Shown: positions 7,587 through 57,641, numbered from the stretch's first letter. The stretch: 64,000 bases of DNA from an uncultured delta proteobacterium (GCA_963815115.1 CAWFFN010000005.1:1152001-1216000); one strand, 5' to 3'. The notes: generated by a model not told the origin, from the sequence alone. Translations and numbers: made by a program.

Positions 7587-8381
7587 TCAATACCGGTCCC
7601 GCACGAACCGTTTGCCCTTGAGCGTCGCCTGATCGTCGTAGGCGCGCTTCGTCGAGCGCTTCGGGACTTTTATCTTCTTCCGCGGCACCTTCTTGTAGGG
7701 GATCAGGCCGAGCAGGTGGCTGATGCAGTTCAGCCGCGCGCGCCGCTTGTCGTCCGATCGAACGACGTGCCAGGGCGCAAACTCCGTGTCCGTGGCCTCG
7801 AGCATCATGTCGCGCGCTCGCGAGTACTCGAACCATCTGCTGCGCGAGCACAGGTCCGTCGGGCTCAGCTTCCACTGTCGCAGCGGATCCGTGATGCGCG
7901 CCTCGAAGCGCCGCTTCTGCTCCACGTCGCTCACTTCCAGCCAGTACTTGACGAGCATGATGCCGTCGTCGACGACGTAGCGCTCGAACTCGGGGCACAC
8001 CACGAGAAACCGCCGGTGCTGGGCCTCGGAGCAGAACCCCATCACGTACTCGACGCCGGCCCGGTTGTACCAGCTGCGGTCGAAGATCACGATTTCGCCG
8101 GCCGCCGGCAAGTGCCGGACGAAGCGCTGCATGTACAGCTGTGACCGTTCGCGGTCGGATGGCGCGGGGAGCGCCACCACGCGGAACACTCTCGGGCTGA
8201 CGCGTTCGGTGATGGCCTTGATCGTGCCGCCCTTGCCGGCCGCGTCGCGTCCTTCGAAGACCACGACCACGCGCAGACCCTTCTCCTTGACCCAGTCCTG
8301 CAGCATGCACAGCTCGACCTGGAGCGAGCGCAGGTGCGCTTCGTATTCCTTGCGCTTCATCGGGTCGCGGGCGGTCGCCAT
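7587..8381 (-). CDS. ppk2: Polyphosphate kinase 2
   Basis: FEGRDAAGKGG Walker A, FDRSWY and WKLSP motifs. Confidence 0.95.
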   Translation of the reverse strand: MATARDPMKRKEYEAHLRSLQVELCMLQDWVKEKGLRVVVVFEGRDAAGKGGTIKAITERVSPRVFRVVALPAPSDRERSQLYMQRFVRHLPAAGEIVIFDRSWYNRAGVEYVMGFCSEAQHRRFLVVCPEFERYVVDDGIMLVKYWLEVSDVEQKRRFEARITDPLRQWKLSPTDLCSRSRWFEYSRARDMMLEATDTEFAPWHVVRSDDKRRARLNCISHLLGLIPYKKVPRKKIKVPKRSTKRAYDDQATLKGKRFVRDRY

Positions 8382-13155: not shown

Positions 13156-13239
13156 GCCGATCGTCGCGGCCGATCGGCCGCGGCCGGGAGAGCTCCTCGA
13201 GGATGCGCGCGCTCCTCGAGGAGCTCCCCGCGTACCGTG

Positions 13240-13360
13240 CCGAGCGGAGCCTGAAGGAGAAGGTGCTCCGGCCTCCCGCGTTGCGCGCGCCGCTCAGGCT
13301 GCCGTGATGGGCTTCGATGATCGAGCGGCGCATCGAGAGCCCCATGCCCTCGCCCGCCCT
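13240..13360 (-). pseudogene. Histidine kinase HATPase C-terminal remnant
   Basis: GMGLSMRRSIIEAHHGSL...GGRSTFSFRL resembles a G2 box and C-terminal strand. Confidence 0.55.
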
Positions 13361-13369
13361 TCAGATGGG

Positions 13370-13695
13370 ACGCCGAGAGGCGATCGAGCAGCGAAAGACC
13401 GAGATCGCGAGTGCGAAGAAGCGGCGACGGGGTGGGAAGTACGTGGTCGAGGAGGCGGACGTGGACGGCGTGCCGCGCCTCTCCACGAAGTACGTCCGCA
13501 ACATCATCGTCGGCAGCTTCCGTGCGATCCTGCGTGACGCACTCGAGATCGACAGGATTCCGGTCCCGTTGAGACTCTCCGAGCTGTGCGTCGGCCTGAA
13601 GGGCGGCTGGGCGCACGAGGACGAGCATGAGCCCGATCCCGATCCGTTCACGCCGGCGGAACGCGACGCGATCCTCGAGTGGTTCCGAACGAAGA
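13370..13695 (+). pseudogene. Probable tyrosine integrase fragment (core-binding region)
   Basis: LSTKYVRNII.GSFRAILRDA...PDPFTPAERDAIL resembles the phage integrase linker region; no catalytic domain follows. Confidence 0.5.
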
Positions 13696-13699
13696 TTCC

Positions 13700-13830
13700 G
13701 CCCGCTGGACGTGAAGGCGATCCGCCGCCAGCTTGGCGTGTCGCAGACCGCTTTCGCCGCGCTCATCAGTGTGCCGGTGGGAACGCTGCCCAACTGGGAG
13801 CAGGGGCGCCGGGTCCCTGACGGGTCAGGA
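13700..13830 (+). pseudogene. XRE/HigA-like HTH antitoxin fragment
   Basis: DVKAIRRQLGVSQTAFAALISVPVGTLPNWEQGRRVP; no proper start or end. Confidence 0.7.
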
Positions 13831-13949
13831 CGAGCGAGGGCCGCTTGTCGCCTTGACCAGGGGCTCGTCCCGCTCAGCTGCGATGCGCCCCCCAAATGGC
13901 CGTCGGTCCCGTTGGATATGCAGGTCGGGTTGGAGTGCCCCGAATCGCT

Positions 13950-13979
13950 CATTGACTTAGTAAGCCAATGGCATAGAAT
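13950..13979 (+). promoter_or_regulatory. Sigma-70 promoter with overlapping palindromic operator (leaderless TA transcript)
   Basis: TTGACT-16-TAGAAT, 6 nt before GTG 13986; imperfect palindrome CATTGACTTA-G-TAAGCCAATG. Confidence 0.6.
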
Positions 13980-13985
13980 GCGGCG

Positions 13986-14277
13986 GTGCGAGTAGAGTGG
14001 GACCCGGAGAAGGACCGCACGAACCGCGTCGAACACGGTCTCGCCCTCGATGAGGTCCGGATTCTCTTCGAGCGCGATATCGACCACCTGGTGATCCATG
14101 ACCAAGAGCACGGCGACGACGAGGACCGGGTCCTTGCCATCGGGCCAGTTGCGAGGGGAGTGGCACGGTGGCGTATGCGGACCGAAAGACGATGTCGTCC
14201 GCGTCATCAGCGCTCGCATGGCGACGCGGATCGAGGAAGAGGCGTTTTACAGGCGAGCGGGAGGCCGAAAGCGATGA
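13986..14277 (+). pseudogene. BrnT family toxin, frameshifted
   Basis: EWDPEKDRTNRVEHG...EDRVLAIG; C-terminal VRVISARMAT is reached only after two frameshifts. Confidence 0.8.
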
Positions 14278-14561
14278 AGGACGAGATCAGGGAACTGACC
14301 GCCGCTGACTTCGAGCGTCCCTCGACGACTCCGCGATCGTTTGGTGCGCGGTGAGTTCAAGAGCGGTGAAGACGTAGCGGCTCTGCGTCGCTTCATCGGG
14401 CTGTCGCAAGAGACGTTCGCTCTGGCTCTGGGTATCAGCGCTTACACACTCCGTAACCGGGAGCAGGGTAGGCGCATGCCGGAAGGACCCGCCCTTGCGC
14501 TGCTGCGCATCGCCGCCCGGCACCCGAGAGTGTTCGTGAGAACCTCGCGCTGGCAGGGTGA
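14274..14561 (+). pseudogene. XRE HTH antitoxin, frameshifted
   Basis: ATGA overlap with the BrnT stop; LRRFIGLSQETFALALGIS..TLRN(R)EQGRRMPEGPA; frameshifts near both ends. Confidence 0.75.
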
Positions 14562-14665
14562 GGGATGTCGGCCGATGAAGTCGACTGGATCTTGCGCTCG
14601 CTGACGGGACTGAGCTGCCTCGCCTCGGCGTGTCGGAAGCTATTGACCCGCCGCGGAAGTCGAAA

Positions 14666-14780
14666 TGCGAGGAGGGGGACTTGACCCCCCTGGCAATCCC
14701 TGTGACTTCGAGGTTTTTCGGGAGCTTGTCGTGACGCTGCATGACGGGCCATGACGAGATCGGGTCCCTCGGCCCCGATC
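14666..14780 (-). repeat. att-like module copy A (tRNA-Leu 3' end + phased TGACG repeats + hairpin)
   Basis: 14666-14690 matches the tRNA-Leu 3' end with one mismatch; about 10 differences from copy B over ~115 bp (manual alignment). Confidence 0.9.
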
Positions 14781-14871
14781 TCACCGCGCCGCACCCACCT
14801 GCATGTGGCCCCGGCTGCTCGACGATCTATCTCGGGCCGTGTAGGTACGAAGTCGCCTCGGAGGACTAGCC

Positions 14872-15087
14872 ATGTTCGATCGCATCAGCTTCGACCCCCA
14901 CATCCTGCGGGGACGGGCGTGCATCCGCGGGATGCGCATCCCGGTGTCTGTCATCGTGGGGCAGATCGCGCACGGGGCTACCTTCGAGGAGATCCTGGAG
15001 GGGTATCCCGACCTCGAACGCGAGGACATTCAGCAGGCCATCGAGTATGCGGCTTGGCTGACCCAGGAGCAGGTGCAACTCTCGTAG
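14872..15087 (+). CDS. DUF433 family antitoxin
   Basis: RISFDPHILRGRACIRGMRIPV...EEILEGYPDLEREDIQQAIEYA; GGAGG SD. Confidence 0.9.
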   Translation: MFDRISFDPHILRGRACIRGMRIPVSVIVGQIAHGATFEEILEGYPDLEREDIQQAIEYAAWLTQEQVQLS

Positions 15088-15096
15088 CCGGCCGTC

Positions 15097-15469
15097 GTGC
15101 GCTTCCTCGCCGACATGGGCGTCGATCAACGGGTCGTCGCCTGGCTGCGCGCGGCTGGCCACGATGCCGTCCACCTGCGCGACGAGGGACTGCACCGCCT
15201 TTCCGACGAAGCGATCTTCGACAAGGCGATCGCGGAAGGCCGAGTAGTCCTGACGTTCGACCTGGACTTCGGTGAGATCGCTGCCCTTGCGAGGGGACGG
15301 GTGGCGAGCGTCGTCTCCGACTGCCCGATACAAGATACTCTCGGTCATCGAGCGCCTTCAGGCAGTTCTCCCTGCATCGGCGGAGGCCCTGGCCAGCGGC
15401 GCGGTCGTCATCGTCGAGCCGGCGAGGCACCGGACACGCGCGCTGCCGAACGTGCGACCGGATCCCTGA
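15097..15469 (+). pseudogene. DUF5615 PIN-like toxin, frameshifted
   Basis: MRFLADMGV...GHDAVH...D..I...A.AEGRVVLTFDLDFG; the C-terminus (VIERL...RHRTRALP) is out of frame after ~15315, apparently by two -1 shifts. Confidence 0.8.
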
Positions 15470-15591
15470 GCGCGCACGCTCCAACCGGCCAGCGAAGTTT
15501 GTTTCCGCACCGGTGATGAGCATTCGGAGAGCTGGATCGGCTCGAAACACAGGAGGGGGACAACCGCGTCCGAGGGCTGGAGACCCCGCCA

Positions 15592-15604
15592 AATCAGTAG
15601 CTTG
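15592..15604 (+). promoter_or_regulatory. IHF-like binding site adjacent to att core
   Basis: AATCAGTAGCTTG versus consensus WATCAANNNNTTR (one mismatch), immediately beside the core repeat. Confidence 0.45.
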
Positions 15605-15607
15605 ACG

Positions 15608-15723
15608 AGTGCGAGGAGGGGGACTTGAACCCCTGAGAATCCCCGTGACTTCGAGGTCTTTCGGGAGCTTGTCGTGACGCTGCATGACGGCCTATGACGA
15701 GATCGGGTCCGTCGGACCCGATC
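15608..15723 (-). repeat. att-like module copy B
   Basis: 15608-15633 is identical to 16380-16405 (26 bp); TGACG x3 at 10-bp spacing; perfect hairpin GATCGGGTCC-GTC-GGACCCGATC. Confidence 0.9.
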
Positions 15724-15754
15724 CGTGGTCGGCCTTGCTGGGTCGCGGACAGCG

Positions 15755-15988
15755 TCAGCCGGCACGCCGCATCGCGCGTGCGAGAATGTCATTGATCAGG
15801 GATTGGTACGGCATGCGGCGCTTAGCGGCCGTCGCTTTCAGGCGACTCAGCACCTCCGGGTCGACCCGGACCGAGATCGCGGTCCGCGCGACGCGCCCAA
15901 GGGGTGGCCGCCCGACCCGGCGCATGCTCGCGAGCTGCTCGTTGGACAACTCGGAGATGTCGCTGAAGTCGATCTTACGCTTCGGCAT
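15755..15988 (-). CDS. BrnA family antitoxin
   Basis: IDFSDI.EL...GRPP...ISVRVDPEVL..LK...PYQSLINDIL. Confidence 0.9.
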   Translation of the reverse strand: MPKRKIDFSDISELSNEQLASMRRVGRPPLGRVARTAISVRVDPEVLSRLKATAAKRRMPYQSLINDILARAMRRAG

Positions 15989-16244
15989 ATTGGTTGCGCT
16001 CTTTCCGGCTGGCGAGGCGTGCACTGATGATCCGTACCATTGTGCCCCGCAGCGTGTAGGCGACTACGACGATGCGTCCCATGGTGCTGCGTGCAAGACG
16101 CAGCCTCCGGGCCTCGCGAGTAGAGTGGCGCAGATCAGTGCCGTCAAGACCGACGGGGTCGTCGAAAGCACTCGCAGCCTCTTCGAACGAGACACCATGT
16201 TTCGCGTAGTTGCTCCGCGCCTTCCCCTCATCCCACTCGAACAC
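15975..16244 (-). CDS. BrnT family toxin
   Basis: FEWDEGKARSNYAKHGVSFEEA...VVAYTLRG..VRIISARLA; intact. Confidence 0.9.
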   Translation of the reverse strand: MFEWDEGKARSNYAKHGVSFEEAASAFDDPVGLDGTDLRHSTREARRLRLARSTMGRIVVVAYTLRGTMVRIISARLASRKERNQYAEA

Positions 16245-16250
16245 ACCGAG

Positions 16251-16266
16251 TTTCGTATATACGAAA
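16251..16266. promoter_or_regulatory. Perfect 16-bp palindrome, probable BrnA operator
   Basis: TTTCGTATATACGAAA, 6 nt upstream of the brnT start. Confidence 0.6.
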
Positions 16267-16381
16267 GGTCGGACGGCTGCAAGTGCTCGCGAGCCGACGA
16301 TTCGGACAGGTCTTCACTCTGGTGGCCAGCGTCGGAGAGCTCGTTGACCGAGGTGCGCCAATGCGTGTGGTCGGTCAGAAG

Positions 16382-16464
16382 TGCGAGGAGGGGGACTTGA
16401 ACCCCCACGGGTGTTACCCCACTAGCCCCTCAAACTAGCGCGTCTGCCATTCCGCCATCCTCGC
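16382..16464 (-). tRNA. tRNA-Leu(GAG)
   Basis: GCGAGGATGGCGGAATGGCAGACGCG-CTAGT-TTGAGGG-GCTAG-long variable arm-GGGGGTTCAAGTCCCCC-TCCTCGCA; CCA not encoded. Confidence 0.95.
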
Positions 16465-50511: not shown

Positions 50512-50551
50512 CCGGCTATAGGGGCGGCCGGCGCGCCGAACCCGCCGTTGT

Positions 50552-50624
<73 letters not shown>

Positions 50625-50654
50625 TTCCTACCATTCCGCATGATTAGCACTCGC

Positions 50655-51833
50655 TCAGCTCAACGACGGCGCCGGCGCGGGCCTTGAATTTCTGACGTCC
50701 TGGGGCGGTTCTGGGGCGGTTTGCCCAAAGTCGCCCTTGATGACGTTCTCCTTGCGCCCCCGGTAGTCACTCGCCTTCTTCCCGGCGCGGCGGAGGTCGT
50801 CCAAATTAACGATGTGGTAGCGGCGGAGCATCGACTCGGTGCGGTGCCCCGACCACAGCATGACGGTATGCGGGTCGACGCCGGCGTCGATGTAGTGCTT
50901 GACGCCTGAGCGCCGCAGGTCGTGCGGGATGCGCCCGGCCATGCCGATCGCGGCGCAGGCGCGGTCCCAGACCTTCTGGAAATCCCCGAGACACGGCCGA
51001 CGACTACCGTCCCGGTCGAAACGAGGAGCGCCGCAGGTTCGGGCGTGGAAGATGAATGGGCAGGTCGGGCGGCGCTGCGCCTGCTGTCGCTCGATGACGG
51101 CCATCAGCTCGGGCGTGTGCTCGGGGTCGACGGGAATCTGCATCTCGCGCTTGGTCTTGTTGAGTTCCCGGCGGAGGGTGAGCGCCTGATCCACCTCGGA
51201 GTAGTCCCGCCATTCAAGTCGTCGGGCCGCTCCCACTCGCCACGGGCAGAAGAACAGGAACAGGACCACGGCGGCGATGTGCGACGGCAGGTGCTGGCAC
51301 AGCCGCTCGACGGCTGCGCGGCGGAAGAAGCCCTTGCGGACTCTGCTCTCGTCATCAGCCGGTTTCTGGATGTAAGGCCGCGACCGAGGTGAGAGTCGCT
51401 TCTTCTCCACTGCGAGCCGGCACCCGCGGTCGAGGAGCGCCAGTTCGATGCGGATGCTGGCGTCCGCTGCTCCCTGCTCGCGGCGGTGCGTGACGTACTC
51501 CTCGATGCGAGCCCCGAGGGTCACCACTTTGGCCCGGTTCCCGAAGTAGTGGACGAGGTGTCGGAAGGAACAGCGCATGGTCGGGAGAGAGCGGTTCTTC
51601 TTGAATCGGTAGTTGTCGACGAGCAACTTCTCGATGTCCCGCAGCGCGAGGCGCTCCTCGTGGGGTACAGCGTCTCCGCACTTCACCTTCTCGATCTTCT
51701 TGCGCAGCACCCGCCGCGCGCGTTCCTCGTCTACCTCCTCGGTCGACCCCCGCACGCGCTTGCCGTCCACCCAGAACACGTAGTGGTAGAATCGACTCCC
51801 TGGTTTCAAGAACACGTCGCCGTCACCTCTCAT
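50655..51833 (-). CDS. Tyrosine recombinase/integrase
   Basis: WR, HDLRRS, SGHRT and RRY catalytic motifs; N-terminal arm-like YHYVFWVDGKRVRGST; converges on the tRNA-Ala 3' end. Confidence 0.93.
   Translation of the reverse strand: MRGDGDVFLKPGSRFYHYVFWVDGKRVRGSTEEVDEERARRVLRKKIEKVKCGDAVPHEERLALRDIEKLLVDNYRFKKNRSLPTMRCSFRHLVHYFGNRAKVVTLGARIEEYVTHRREQGAADASIRIELALLDRGCRLAVEKKRLSPRSRPYIQKPADDESRVRKGFFRRAAVERLCQHLPSHIAAVVLFLFFCPWRVGAARRLEWRDYSEVDQALTLRRELNKTKREMQIPVDPEHTPELMAVIERQQAQRRPTCPFIFHARTCGAPRFDRDGSRRPCLGDFQKVWDRACAAIGMAGRIPHDLRRSGVKHYIDAGVDPHTVMLWSGHRTESMLRRYHIVNLDDLRRAGKKASDYRGRKENVIKGDFGQTAPEPPQDVRNSRPAPAPSLS
50700..50721. repeat. 11-bp tandem direct repeat, putative integrase arm sites
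   Basis: CTGGGGCGGTT x2, about 75 bp from the tRNA 3' end. Confidence 0.5.
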
Positions 51834-56955: not shown

Positions 56956-57641
56956 CGACGCGAGCACGGATCATGGCTGCCTCCCCGCCGGAACGTGTGG
57001 CCGAACGGACTTACAGACTGGCGCTGCATGACCCATGCCTGCGCCGCAGCCGCTTCGCGACGCTAATTCGCCGCCTTTCGTCTCAGATCCGAGAACACGC
57101 CCGCACTTCCGATTTCCCGGAGGGTGCCCTACCCGGAAAAAGGGCAGTTCAAGCCGCGTGCTTGGCGAGGGTGAGCGTAGCCGAGGGCAGCGAGCCGACG
57201 CGCGTGCTAGCGGTGACGCGGTCGTGCTCATCCCCGTCGAAGTAGTTCTCGTACAGGCATCTTGACCGGACCATCCTGATCACGCCCGCTCCAGATCGAT
57301 GGCTCCAGCGAAAGCCCTCTGCCTCGGAAGGACGCATTTCCGTCCAAGAAGGGCATGTGAACGAACGCGTGGTACGGCGGGTGGCTCCGAGGACGATCGC
57401 CCTCGGTTGCGTCGACCGAGGTGAAAGCCGAAGGCCTTCCTCTCGAACCAGCCGGTGATCCGACTCACTTCATCGACCGTGAAGGGGTCGGGTCCGAACG
57501 GGTTTCTAGAGACAGGTCGAGCCTGGAAAGTTGACGGATCACCCCCAGATCAGACCGCCGCCCCGGCCAGTTCCCTGCTGCGCCCGGCTGGCGCGGGCCG
57601 CCGGTGGTACTCGGGAGCGTCACAATGATTCCGTAACGCGC

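Follow-up and report, generated by a model that had tools for sequence, protein, structure and literature searches.

Integron arrays, chromosomal ones included, can hold toxin-antitoxin cassettes. The work referenced for CIMEs and for ICESt1/ICESt3-type elements is reportedly that of Pavlovic et al. of 2004. In the part of the review PMC5704250 that deals with them, CIMEs (cis-mobilizable elements) are elements without integration genes that retain attL and attR, and are described in terms of integration, decay and accretion; both they and tandem accretion are defined there on ICESt1/ICESt3-type elements of Streptococcus thermophilus. Tycheposons, in the portion of 10.1101/2020.12.28.424599 that treats their junctions, are elements that can lie adjacent to one another, parted only by a partial tRNA, and are accompanied by fragmented integrases and extra partial tRNAs.

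The locus considered here belongs to an uncultured soil bacterium, and is an array that sits behind a leucine tRNA gene in a window (the whole stretch of DNA that was analysed) of 64,000 nucleotides. The tRNA-Leu(GAG) gene, at 16381-16464 on the minus strand, is intact (ARAGORN; Rfam tRNA, 51.6 bits) and is the sole match of an Rfam scan. Its upstream neighbours are gap-pgk-tpiA-secG, and synteny with six relatives breaks exactly at 16381/16382, the 3' end of the tRNA gene. Reading away from the tRNA, a packet of 772 bp (packet 1) is followed by one of 944 bp (packet 2) and then by a wreck of 1.5 kb. Because the G+C content of the array (63-66%) lies below that of either flank (71%) and synteny ends at the tRNA 3' end, the array is judged to be foreign DNA. 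A terminator scan found no sites.

Packets 1 and 2 are each flanked on both sides by copies of an att core, which is the final 26 nt of the tRNA gene (16381-16406), with further copies at 15609-15634 and 14665-14690. As in a tRNA-targeting tyrosine-integrase island, the array starts at an intact tRNA and is closed opposite it by a direct repeat of the tRNA's 3' part; of the integrase gene that such an island contains, only an internal fragment of 88 residues was found (13431-13694). The Pfam content of the two packets is restricted to toxin-antitoxin domains, with no integrase or transfer genes, and their operons face opposite ways. DNA without an assigned role amounts to at most about 140 nt on either side of each operon, and contains no recognisable gene fragment.

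Each core copy is adjoined on its tRNA side by an arm, with which it forms a module of about 115 bp. Core B (15609-15634, minus strand) agrees with the tRNA 3' end at 25 of 26 nt and core A (14665-14690, minus strand) at 24 of 26, and the three cores differ from each other. Arm B (15635-15723, minus strand) consists of a perfect palindrome with an 11-bp stem (15699-15723), then three CGTCA repeats with a 10-nt period, and last a spacer of ~45 nt. Arm A (14691-14780, minus strand) is 91% identical to it; its palindrome carries two non-compensated changes and its three CGTCA repeats are intact. Identity is 91% over the 94 nt of 14687-14780 and 15630-15723, and likewise 91% over 114 nt for the whole modules (E 1.1e-39, whole-genome search); a global alignment gives nine mismatches and one gap. 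By these scores the likeness of the two modules is far above chance, and in both it breaks off at an identical base, where the palindrome has its outer edge. No further occurrence of the palindrome and the triple repeat was found in the whole genome. Folded in either orientation, the module had z-scores between -0.8 and -2.8, no better than shuffles with the exception of the palindrome, its only stable part. A search down to position 8001 for a fourth, degenerate core found none above chance, the best having 8 mismatches in 25 where shuffles average 1.3 matches with nine or fewer mismatches. The intact tRNA and the direct copies of 25-26 nt, each preceded by an arm that would derive from an element, give the geometry that recombination at the 3' end of a tRNA gene should produce. 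Much of the original prediction is borne out to this point: a tRNA-Leu-anchored array with conserved arms, cassettes of ~770 and ~940 bp, and modules that differ at about 10 of ~115 positions, terminate in a tRNA 3'-end copy (26 nt, with one mismatch in B and two in A) and act as att junctions.

Packet 1 encodes a type II BrnT/BrnA pair, as had been predicted, with adjacent genes whose full-length Pfam matches exceed the curated cut-offs and are both intact. The BrnT toxin gene (15975-16244, minus strand, 89 aa) matches PF04365 over profile positions 1-77 of 77 (E 1.6e-23; 83.2 bits, cut-off 34.5), and the BrnA antitoxin gene (15755-16024, minus strand) matches PF14384 over positions 1-68 of 68 (E 6.6e-11; 42.9 bits, cut-off 26.1), its start likely being the ATG near 15988. 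The tRNA-side flank, P'1 (16245-16380, minus strand, 136 nt), contains the palindrome TTCGTATATACGAA directly upstream of BrnT, which is a likely operator or promoter; tblastn found no coding remnant of an integrase C terminus in this flank. In packet 2, the predicted DUF433/DUF5615 pair holds for its first member and is broken in its second. The DUF433 antitoxin-like gene (14872-15087, plus strand, 71 aa) is intact, matching PF04255 over positions 1-56 of 56 (E 1.1e-24, 86 bits). The gene for the PIN-like toxin DUF5615 (15097-15469, plus strand) is frameshifted: it matches only positions 1-72 of the 110 of its profile, the part homologous to the C terminus is read in a different frame, and comparison with the homologue in relative G020 shows an indel of 17 nt. 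The tRNA-side flank of packet 2, P'2 (15470-15608, minus strand, about 138 nt), is nearly equal in length to P'1. Over 12 residues at 15565-15627 on the minus strand there is a borderline, unestablished resemblance to integrase box I, for which a search of 4.2 kb gave a best E of 7.8e-4. The flanks P'1, P'2 and P'3 are mutually unlike, with local alignment scores no better than those of shuffles.

The distal wreck holds a pair of frameshifted genes and three gene fragments. The pair, a decayed BrnT with an XRE/MqsA-like antitoxin (13986-14604, plus strand), was recognised by partial Pfam matches in two frames and by three-frame translation, and is preceded by a promoter-like site at 13952-13979 (promoter scan). 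Beyond it lie a second XRE-type antitoxin gene fragment with a WEQGRR motif (13705-13830, plus strand; HTH_3, E 9e-7) and the internal fragment of a tyrosine integrase (13431-13694, plus strand). The latter corresponds to residues ~130-216 of the 447-residue integrase of relative G009 (tblastn, 42% identity, E 1e-11), with 42-43% identity across the G009 and G012 queries (E 1e-11 and 3e-9), and is oriented toward the tRNA, as are family members that abut tRNA-Leu(GAG) in relatives. Last comes the C-terminal fragment of a histidine-kinase gene (13224-13345, minus strand; HATPase_c 75-109 of 111, a weak match at E 0.02), which has DNA matches of 74-82% to kinase paralogues, is cut off by the integrase fragment and marks the ragged far end of the array. 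The BrnT/XRE remnants and integrase-like fragment of the original prediction are present, the former with both genes frameshifted and the latter now placed as an internal piece. A match of 14344-14691 to an integrase C terminus (E about 1e-3) was rejected, as the frame is that of an XRE-type antitoxin with a WEQGRR-like motif and the end of the match is merely translated tRNA core. Decay grows the farther a unit lies from the tRNA: packet 1 shows none, packet 2 has a frameshifted toxin, a damaged palindrome in arm A and a core with two changes, and in the wreck both genes of the pair are frameshifted. This order fits the predicted serial insertion at the tRNA, with the newest arrival adjoining it.

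Among eight relatives' loci, tRNA-Leu(GAG) is a hot spot for one integrase family, with the architecture Arm-DNA-bind_2 + SAM_3 + Phage_integrase. A full-length integrase abuts the tRNA in two of the eight (G012, G009), the gene is IS-split in one (G024) and survives as C-terminal relics in two (G002, G005); in three it is absent (G023, G013 and G003, the last on a contig that stops at the tRNA). The integrases carried by relatives have 445-447 aa, with a frame that runs into the tRNA end, and their islands add replication genes (AAA_25, Toprim). The G024 island, of 11.8 kb, carries a 323-aa tyrosine recombinase (PF00589, E 1.4e-23) in addition to the IS-split integrase, and the far end of this ordinary island is closed by an arm of the same build as A and B. 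That build, a palindrome of nine or more pairs at -127 to -91 from the tRNA-end copy followed by two or three direct repeats with a 10-nt period, is found in six of the eight arm-plus-core copies examined (five of seven if A and B are counted once): modules A and B, G012 C14, the far end of the G024 island, and C7:900 kb and C9:368 kb of this genome. The sequences are unrelated, and no likeness to arm B was found in the six other arms that precede tRNA-Leu 3' copies. The palindrome window was picked after the data had been seen; as a control, 3000 segments of 200 nt were drawn at random from this genome, and 62 of them contain such a palindrome in it. Since the same arm layout stands before tRNA-Leu 3' copies at the G024 far end and elsewhere, modules A and B are assigned as attR-type junctions. 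The counter-case foreseen at the outset, that in relatives such modules close large ordinary islands, is nearly realised at G024, as regards arm build and not as regards sequence, and this tells against minimal cassettes moved in trans. No far ends of the G012, G002 and G005 islands were found within the DNA examined.

Within the genome of the array there are 20 matches to PF00589, the nearest to tRNA-Leu(GAG) being 34 kb off, beside a tRNA-Ala. The tRNA-Leu integrase family is represented there by fragments, with no close full-length relative, and no integrase in the genome stands beside an arm of the A/B type, so the cognate integrase that was expected next to the same arm did not materialise. 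Nor was an integrase C-terminal remnant found beside the tRNA or beside either of cores A and B, though the family varies so much over its last ~30 residues that such a remnant might go unrecognised. Two full-length homologues of the G024 far-end recombinase occur at C9:387134-388087 and C8:38086-39039 (47% identity); inspection by eye of the next 400 nt found no tRNA-Leu core or palindrome-repeat arm, and they were set aside. The tRNA-Leu core copy at C9:368082-368128 lies near an IS110-family transposase, and a bridge-RNA/IS110 reading of the module was likewise abandoned, the IS ending about 390 nt from the core copy.

Searches for the arm beyond this locus covered 24 family genomes (no match), a class sample of 400 genomes (none at E 0.001 or better), a phylum sample of 400 genomes (no extended match; ten genomes with short matches of 19-45 nt, E 4e-4 to 1e-2), and plasmids and phages (no match). 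The pattern GTCGTGACG-N5-TGACG-N5-TGACGAG, which in this exact form overlooks diverged relatives, occurred at one locus in genome_contigs and 15 in metagenome_contigs, and all 16 were discarded as simple GTGACG-type tandem repeats or as otherwise lacking the module. In IMG/VR a 21-nt arm pattern gave no loci, and the 30 loci with a 16-base pattern were set aside, the longest module likeness among them being 24 nt. By sequence comparison, then, the arm is private to this genome, with two copies only in everything searched, and the predicted recurrence of the arm elsewhere with variable small cargo was not encountered in this genome or in any of these collections.

The best explanation of what is directly observed (the repeats, arm build, cargo, decay gradient, private distribution and relatives' integrase family at the site) is, we think with moderate confidence, tandem accretion followed by reductive decay to CIME-like relics in which toxin-antitoxin genes outlived the remainder. 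The insertion of mobile islands one after another, and their decay, is a process already known. In essence, at least three integrative elements would have entered the 3' end of tRNA-Leu(GAG) in succession, each displacing its predecessors away from the tRNA gene. Deletions and frameshifts would then have shrunk these elements, the packets having once been larger, to integrase-less relics. The 115-bp module would be the left arm of an element fused to the tRNA-end copy that recombination leaves, in which the palindrome and the three phased CGTCA repeats are putative arm-type sites, probably bound by an integrase or excisionase. Toxin-antitoxin genes would have been kept, probably because loss of an antitoxin is penalised while an island may shed its other parts at no cost. 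At present the array is most likely unable to move, since the genome is without a matching integrase. Several observations weigh against such a history: the packets are compact and free of debris, contrary to random deletion and to the wreck, which did keep debris; an integrase C terminus survives beside the tRNA in the G002 and G005 relics and was not recognised here; the near-equal lengths of P'1 and P'2 are not predicted by decay; and the likeness of A and B ends sharply at the palindrome edge. Furthermore, no parent island with this arm was found among the genomes searched, and the only integrase fragment of the array lies in the distal wreck.

Metagenomic contigs bear on these points and on a second reading. 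Logan contigs of four runs were used, with a depth of 2-6 and several parts of the stretch uncovered. Exact short contigs from independent runs confirm three junctions (14625-14775, 14757-14995 and 15703-15865), and none of the listed contigs spans core B. In run X2, from a soil metagenome, record 14 is exact over 16225-16405 and continues with 73 nt unlike the tRNA body; because it departs from the tRNA after the core, another junction at this core exists in nature, which counts against decay and leaves some room for mobilisation in trans. The same run has exact contigs over packets 1 and 2 and, at very low depth, pieces of the wreck that differ at 6 of 100 and 11 of 201 letters. These observations would suit the integron-like reading of the original prediction, in which the packets are minimal non-autonomous toxin-antitoxin elements with arm plus tRNA core as their sole cis site and an integrase acting in trans. 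Such packets might be minimal integrative elements, each a toxin-antitoxin pair with a one-sided att site, that ride the integrase of a passing island and stack as addiction modules, and the X2 junction might then be an unsampled member or arrangement. Their compactness, the like lengths of their tRNA-side flanks, and the sharing between unrelated cargo of one arm, 91% alike with its three phased repeats fully kept, speak in the same direction. We nevertheless regard this reading as unlikely. Only two copies of the arm exist in everything searched, a matching integrase is absent from the genome, conservation does not extend to the other arm (P'), and packet 2 has a broken DUF5615 toxin and a damaged palindrome in arm A. 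The homologues of these toxin-antitoxin pairs in relatives are at a distance from any tRNA copy and resemble these in the coding region only, without such flanks. No circle or core-core skip joint is reported for the four runs, which as contigs of this depth carry no weight for or against circles or empty sites. The predicted family of cassettes that share one arm and move in trans is not supported.

It is also conceivable, if improbable, that the end of one ancestral island, arm plus core, was duplicated in place, and that toxin-antitoxin genes then entered between the copies by ordinary recombination or illegitimate insertion, in which case the packets were never elements of their own. The privacy of the arm to this locus, the confinement of the A/B likeness to arm and core with sharp edges, and the existence elsewhere in family genomes of counterparts that are 75-78% identical in the coding regions and lack the flanks would all be in keeping with this. 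However, unequal crossing-over at the 26-nt cores would have copied the cargo too, and the cargo differs; the 9% arm divergence and the decay gradient suit separate arrivals better, and no trace of a duplicated flank extends beyond the arm. That the array is an assembly artefact, the repeated core having caused a wrong join in a metagenome-assembled contig, is scarcely credible: at the tRNA-side core of packet 1 the sole contig to extend that far does leave the tRNA sequence, and no listed contig crosses core B, but the three other junctions are matched exactly by contigs of separate runs, the assembly has 12 contigs with the array on one of 1.8 Mb, a 26-nt repeat is below the usual assembly word size, and the three cores are not identical.

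As a product of accretion and decay, the locus illustrates cleanly and on a small scale how islands linked to tRNA genes build up and wear, att junctions and toxin-antitoxin genes being what survives longest. In the layout that recurs in this uncultured lineage, the palindrome ends about 92 nt short of the tRNA-end copy and direct repeats with a 10-nt period follow; it could be of use there for finding the limits of islands and for matching integrases to sites. Were the packets mobile, which the evidence does not favour, no smaller tRNA-site integrative element would be known to us.

Compared with the described systems, the array resembles integron arrays in that small units, toxin-antitoxin pairs among them, follow one another with a repeated recombination site in between. 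Unlike integrons, it has no intI, attI or Pc; a tRNA gene with no adjoining tyrosine recombinase gene stands at its head, its joints are tRNA end plus arm and not attC hairpins, and there are two units only, in opposite orientations and with their own promoters, and the label of an integron-like array is not supported. It differs from the CIMEs in that its units are below 1 kb and hold a toxin-antitoxin pair only, it targets a tRNA gene, in a soil lineage that is uncultured, a single arm is conserved between units and, in a comparison made by sequence alone, no intact resident element is able to mobilise it in cis. It shares with them integrase-less units in tandem at a target gene's 3' end, which here probably arose through repeated site-specific integration and decay. 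Tycheposons, in so far as the portion of their account drawn on here extends, have their own recombinase and larger cargo, whereas no unit here keeps a recombinase, and the integrase family here is a different one (Arm-DNA-bind_2 + SAM_3 + Phage_integrase); within the same bounds, the array is like the tycheposon islands of Prochlorococcus in its probable successive integrations at one tRNA, with older ones pushed inward, in neighbours parted only by a partial tRNA, and in its relics, which are integrase fragments and extra partial tRNAs. The islands of relatives G012, G009 and G024 differ in their 445-447-aa integrase and AAA_25/Toprim replication genes, which packets 1 and 2 lack, and have in common with the array the tRNA target, the kind of core repeat, the integrase family of its fragment and, at the far end of the G024 island, the build of the arm.

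The source genome amounts to 6.9 Mb in 12 contigs, with the window lying inside one of 1.8 Mb. At 16381-16464 on the minus strand is a gene for tRNA-Leu(GAG), directly preceded by open reading frames that, from a reading of their translations, are secG, tpiA, pgk, and gap. In six family members, likeness at the DNA level spans secG-tpiA-pgk-gap and ends exactly at the 3' end of the tRNA (16381/16382), and all DNA below that boundary is strain-specific. Here, the 3'-terminal 26 nt of the tRNA occur twice more, as core B (15609-15634, one change) and core A (14665-14690, two changes), each flanked on its tRNA-facing side by an arm of ~90 nt (arm B, 15635-15723; arm A, 14691-14780). The two modules, each an arm with its core, differ by nine substitutions and one gap over about 115 positions. 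They divide the DNA into packet 1 of 772 bp, packet 2 of 944 bp, and a distal remnant of 1.5 kb, beyond which a search for a fourth core copy, down to position 8001, found none. The G+C content is 63-66% across the array compared with 71% on either side. The original prediction of two toxin-antitoxin (TA) packets, closed by a conserved module that includes a tRNA-Leu 3' copy, is borne out by the core copies and by the match of module A to module B (E 1.1e-39 in a whole-genome search).

Read in the orientation of the tRNA, the arm begins with a palindrome with an 11-bp stem, perfect in arm B and carrying two uncompensated changes in arm A, the presumed older arm. Three CGTCA repeats with a 10-nt period follow, then a spacer of ~45 nt and the tRNA-end copy. 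Recombination of tyrosine-integrase islands at a tRNA 3' end puts the left arm of attP into an attR-type junction, and the arms of the modules occupy that place; the phased repeats are putative arm-type protein-binding sites. A search against Rfam matched the tRNA alone, the module folds no better than shuffled sequences except at the palindrome, and the palindrome and the triple repeat are found nowhere else in the genome. It is the build of the arm, and not its sequence, that recurs before other tRNA-Leu 3' copies, namely at an orphan copy in the relative G012, in the relative G024 at the far end of an island of 11.8 kb that adjoins the same tRNA, and at two orphan copies within the source genome (C7:900049 and C9:368082). 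In each case the palindrome has 9-13 pairs and falls within the interval -127 to -91, counted from the tRNA-end copy, with two or three direct repeats of 10-nt period after it. This build is present in six of eight copies, or five of seven if A and B are counted once; a palindrome in the same interval, the limits of which were set after the data had been seen, occurs in 62 of 3000 random 200-nt segments of the genome. In G024, the arm comes after a gene for a 323-aa tyrosine recombinase and closes an ordinary island. We conclude that both modules represent true ends of islands, belonging to a local class. Of the by-products of the analysis, the arm build that recurs in this uncultured lineage is the most useful.

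Partial-tRNA joints also lie elsewhere in the genome. Contig C7 carries two copies of the tRNA-Leu(GAG) 3' end 3.6 kb apart (896397-896417 and 900049-900074), with three genes for secreted proteins, no integrase between them, and no tRNA gene nearby. The second of these is an exact 26-nt match, and upstream of it are a palindrome with a 13-bp stem, a 10-nt unit repeated in tandem in three exact copies, and a miniature fold resembling a tRNA. Orphan tRNA-Leu 3' copies at C8:78059-78084, 700 nt from tRNA-Ser(TGA), and at C7:896375-896417 have 43 nt in common (93%), reaching 19 nt past the T arm, and constitute a second family of such joints. The copy of the tRNA-Leu(CAG) 3' end at C9:368082-368128 has an arm of the same build, with an ATGGCGG-like phased repeat resembling that of the orphan arm on contig C14 of G012; the tRNA-Leu gene that one arm type serves may therefore vary from genome to genome. 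Contig C9 also bears four copies (366035-367600 and three more) of a 1.57-kb IS110-family element with at least 99% identity. The element sits within a ~92-nt repeat family, with ~10 copies between 1376 kb and 1419 kb on C5 and many on C9, and this family is a possible target array of attC-like or REP-like type.

At the loci compared, tRNA-Leu(GAG) is a hot spot for a single integrase family, with the domains Arm-DNA-bind_2, SAM_3, and Phage_integrase. Among the eight relatives' loci, the gene is full-length in G012 and G009, split by an IS in G024, and reduced to C-terminal relics in G002 and G005; none was found at G003, where the contig ends at the tRNA, or at G023 and G013. The gene and the tRNA are convergent, and the open frame of the gene extends into the tRNA end. 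Behind the G012 copy come an excisionase-like gene (recognized from its translation; no Pfam family) and then AAA_25 and Toprim replication genes. In the relatives, the frame continues antisense through the tRNA 3' end to a C terminus of ...RGGG(L/F)EPP or ...EEGDLNPHG (14926-16263 of L069 from G012, 356-1699 of L070 from G009, and 6055-7347 of L037 from G024), so that the end of the integrase gene and the att core overlap. The source genome contains only fragments of this family. One, at 13431-13694, corresponds to residues 130-216 in the same orientation and lies ~970 nt from core A, with TA debris between. There are 20 PF00589 matches in the genome, the nearest 34 kb from tRNA-Leu(GAG), beside tRNA-Ala. 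Adjoining tRNA-Ala(GGC) in the window is a tyrosine-recombinase match at 50551-51314 (456-aa open frame), and ~6 kb beyond it, at 57248-57504, is a tRNA-Leu-type integrase fragment (residues ~194-279); this region is another island.

The cargo is preserved to differing extents. In packet 1, the BrnT/BrnA pair on the minus strand is intact, both genes matching their Pfam profiles over the full length and above cut-off. Packet 2 has two genes on the plus strand. That for DUF433 is intact; that for DUF5615 (PIN-like) matches profile positions 1-72 of 110 only, its homologous C-terminal part is in another frame, with a 17-nt indel relative to the homologue in the relative G020, and the gene is read as probably broken. 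The G020 homologue (L073 on contig C36, the counterpart of 15097-15469) switches frame in the same region by a different shift, and so either the two were independently broken or the gene family is read unusually here. In the distal remnant, a BrnT gene and an XRE/MqsA-like antitoxin gene are each split by frameshift, alongside a fragment of a second XRE-type gene, the internal piece of the integrase, and the tail end of a histidine-kinase gene. Decay thus grows with distance from tRNA-Leu(GAG).

The best-supported account, which we regard as probable, is that islands accreted in tandem at tRNA-Leu(GAG) and then underwent reductive decay, of which the TA genes and att junctions would be the survivors. 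The original prediction had instead envisaged a family of mini-cassettes that share an arm and are mobilized in trans, and several features are in keeping with this: the packets are strikingly clean, without gene debris, their flanks past the core measure 136 and 138 nt, and the likeness of A and B stops at the same base. In addition, a 254-nt contig from metagenome run X2 is identical to 16225-16405 and then continues for 73 nt unlike the tRNA body, for which no junction with either arm was reported; one or more natural populations thus have a different partner joined to the tRNA-side end of packet 1. The run data are contigs with a depth of 2-6, unable to reveal circles or empty sites. Contigs from runs X2 and X4, at a depth of about 2, also join 15231 to 16058 with five extra letters, which would delete core B, arm B, BrnA, and part of BrnT; the contiguous form is in X2 as well, and the joint may be spurious.

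Against mobilization in trans, a search for the arm at other sites, as the original prediction had proposed for a check, shows it to be private to this genome in the collections covered. It was absent from all 24 family genomes (the whole order in the collection), where relatives match the tRNA core only and a single 29-nt match in G001 (E 0.006) is no better than chance. Of 400 genomes in a phylum sample, 10 gave matches of 19-45 nt (E 4e-4 to 1e-2), none extended; a class sample gave 0/400 at E 0.001 or better, and nothing matched among plasmids or phages. Scans with exact patterns, their reach limited by the pattern, returned simple repeats or chance matches only from GTDB representatives, JGI metagenomes, and IMG/VR. 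Moreover, the three units have unlike flanks on the tRNA side (local scores are 8-11 where shuffles average about 9, and 31-247 of 300 shuffles attain the observed score), and hence only one arm is common to them. Homologues of the cargo DNA occur in G020 (DUF433/DUF5615), G007 (BrnTA), and G010 (XRE gene); their likeness stops at the coding region, and none has a tRNA or core copy within 1.5 kb. A family of trans-mobilized cassettes does not fit these observations and is unlikely. Duplication of an island end in place, as the origin of the two modules, is slightly less probable again, and an array produced by faulty assembly is very improbable; a modest share of the probability is given to none of these accounts.

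Tandem accretion followed by decay would place the array as an example of an already known kind of tRNA-linked relic. It fits the route of integration, decay, and accretion to cis-mobilizable elements (CIMEs), which have lost their integration genes and kept their att sites, as set out in the review PMC5704250. The islands of Prochlorococcus, as described in the preprint 10.1101/2020.12.28.424599, likewise combine partial tRNAs with fragmented integrases, in the pattern of the array described here.
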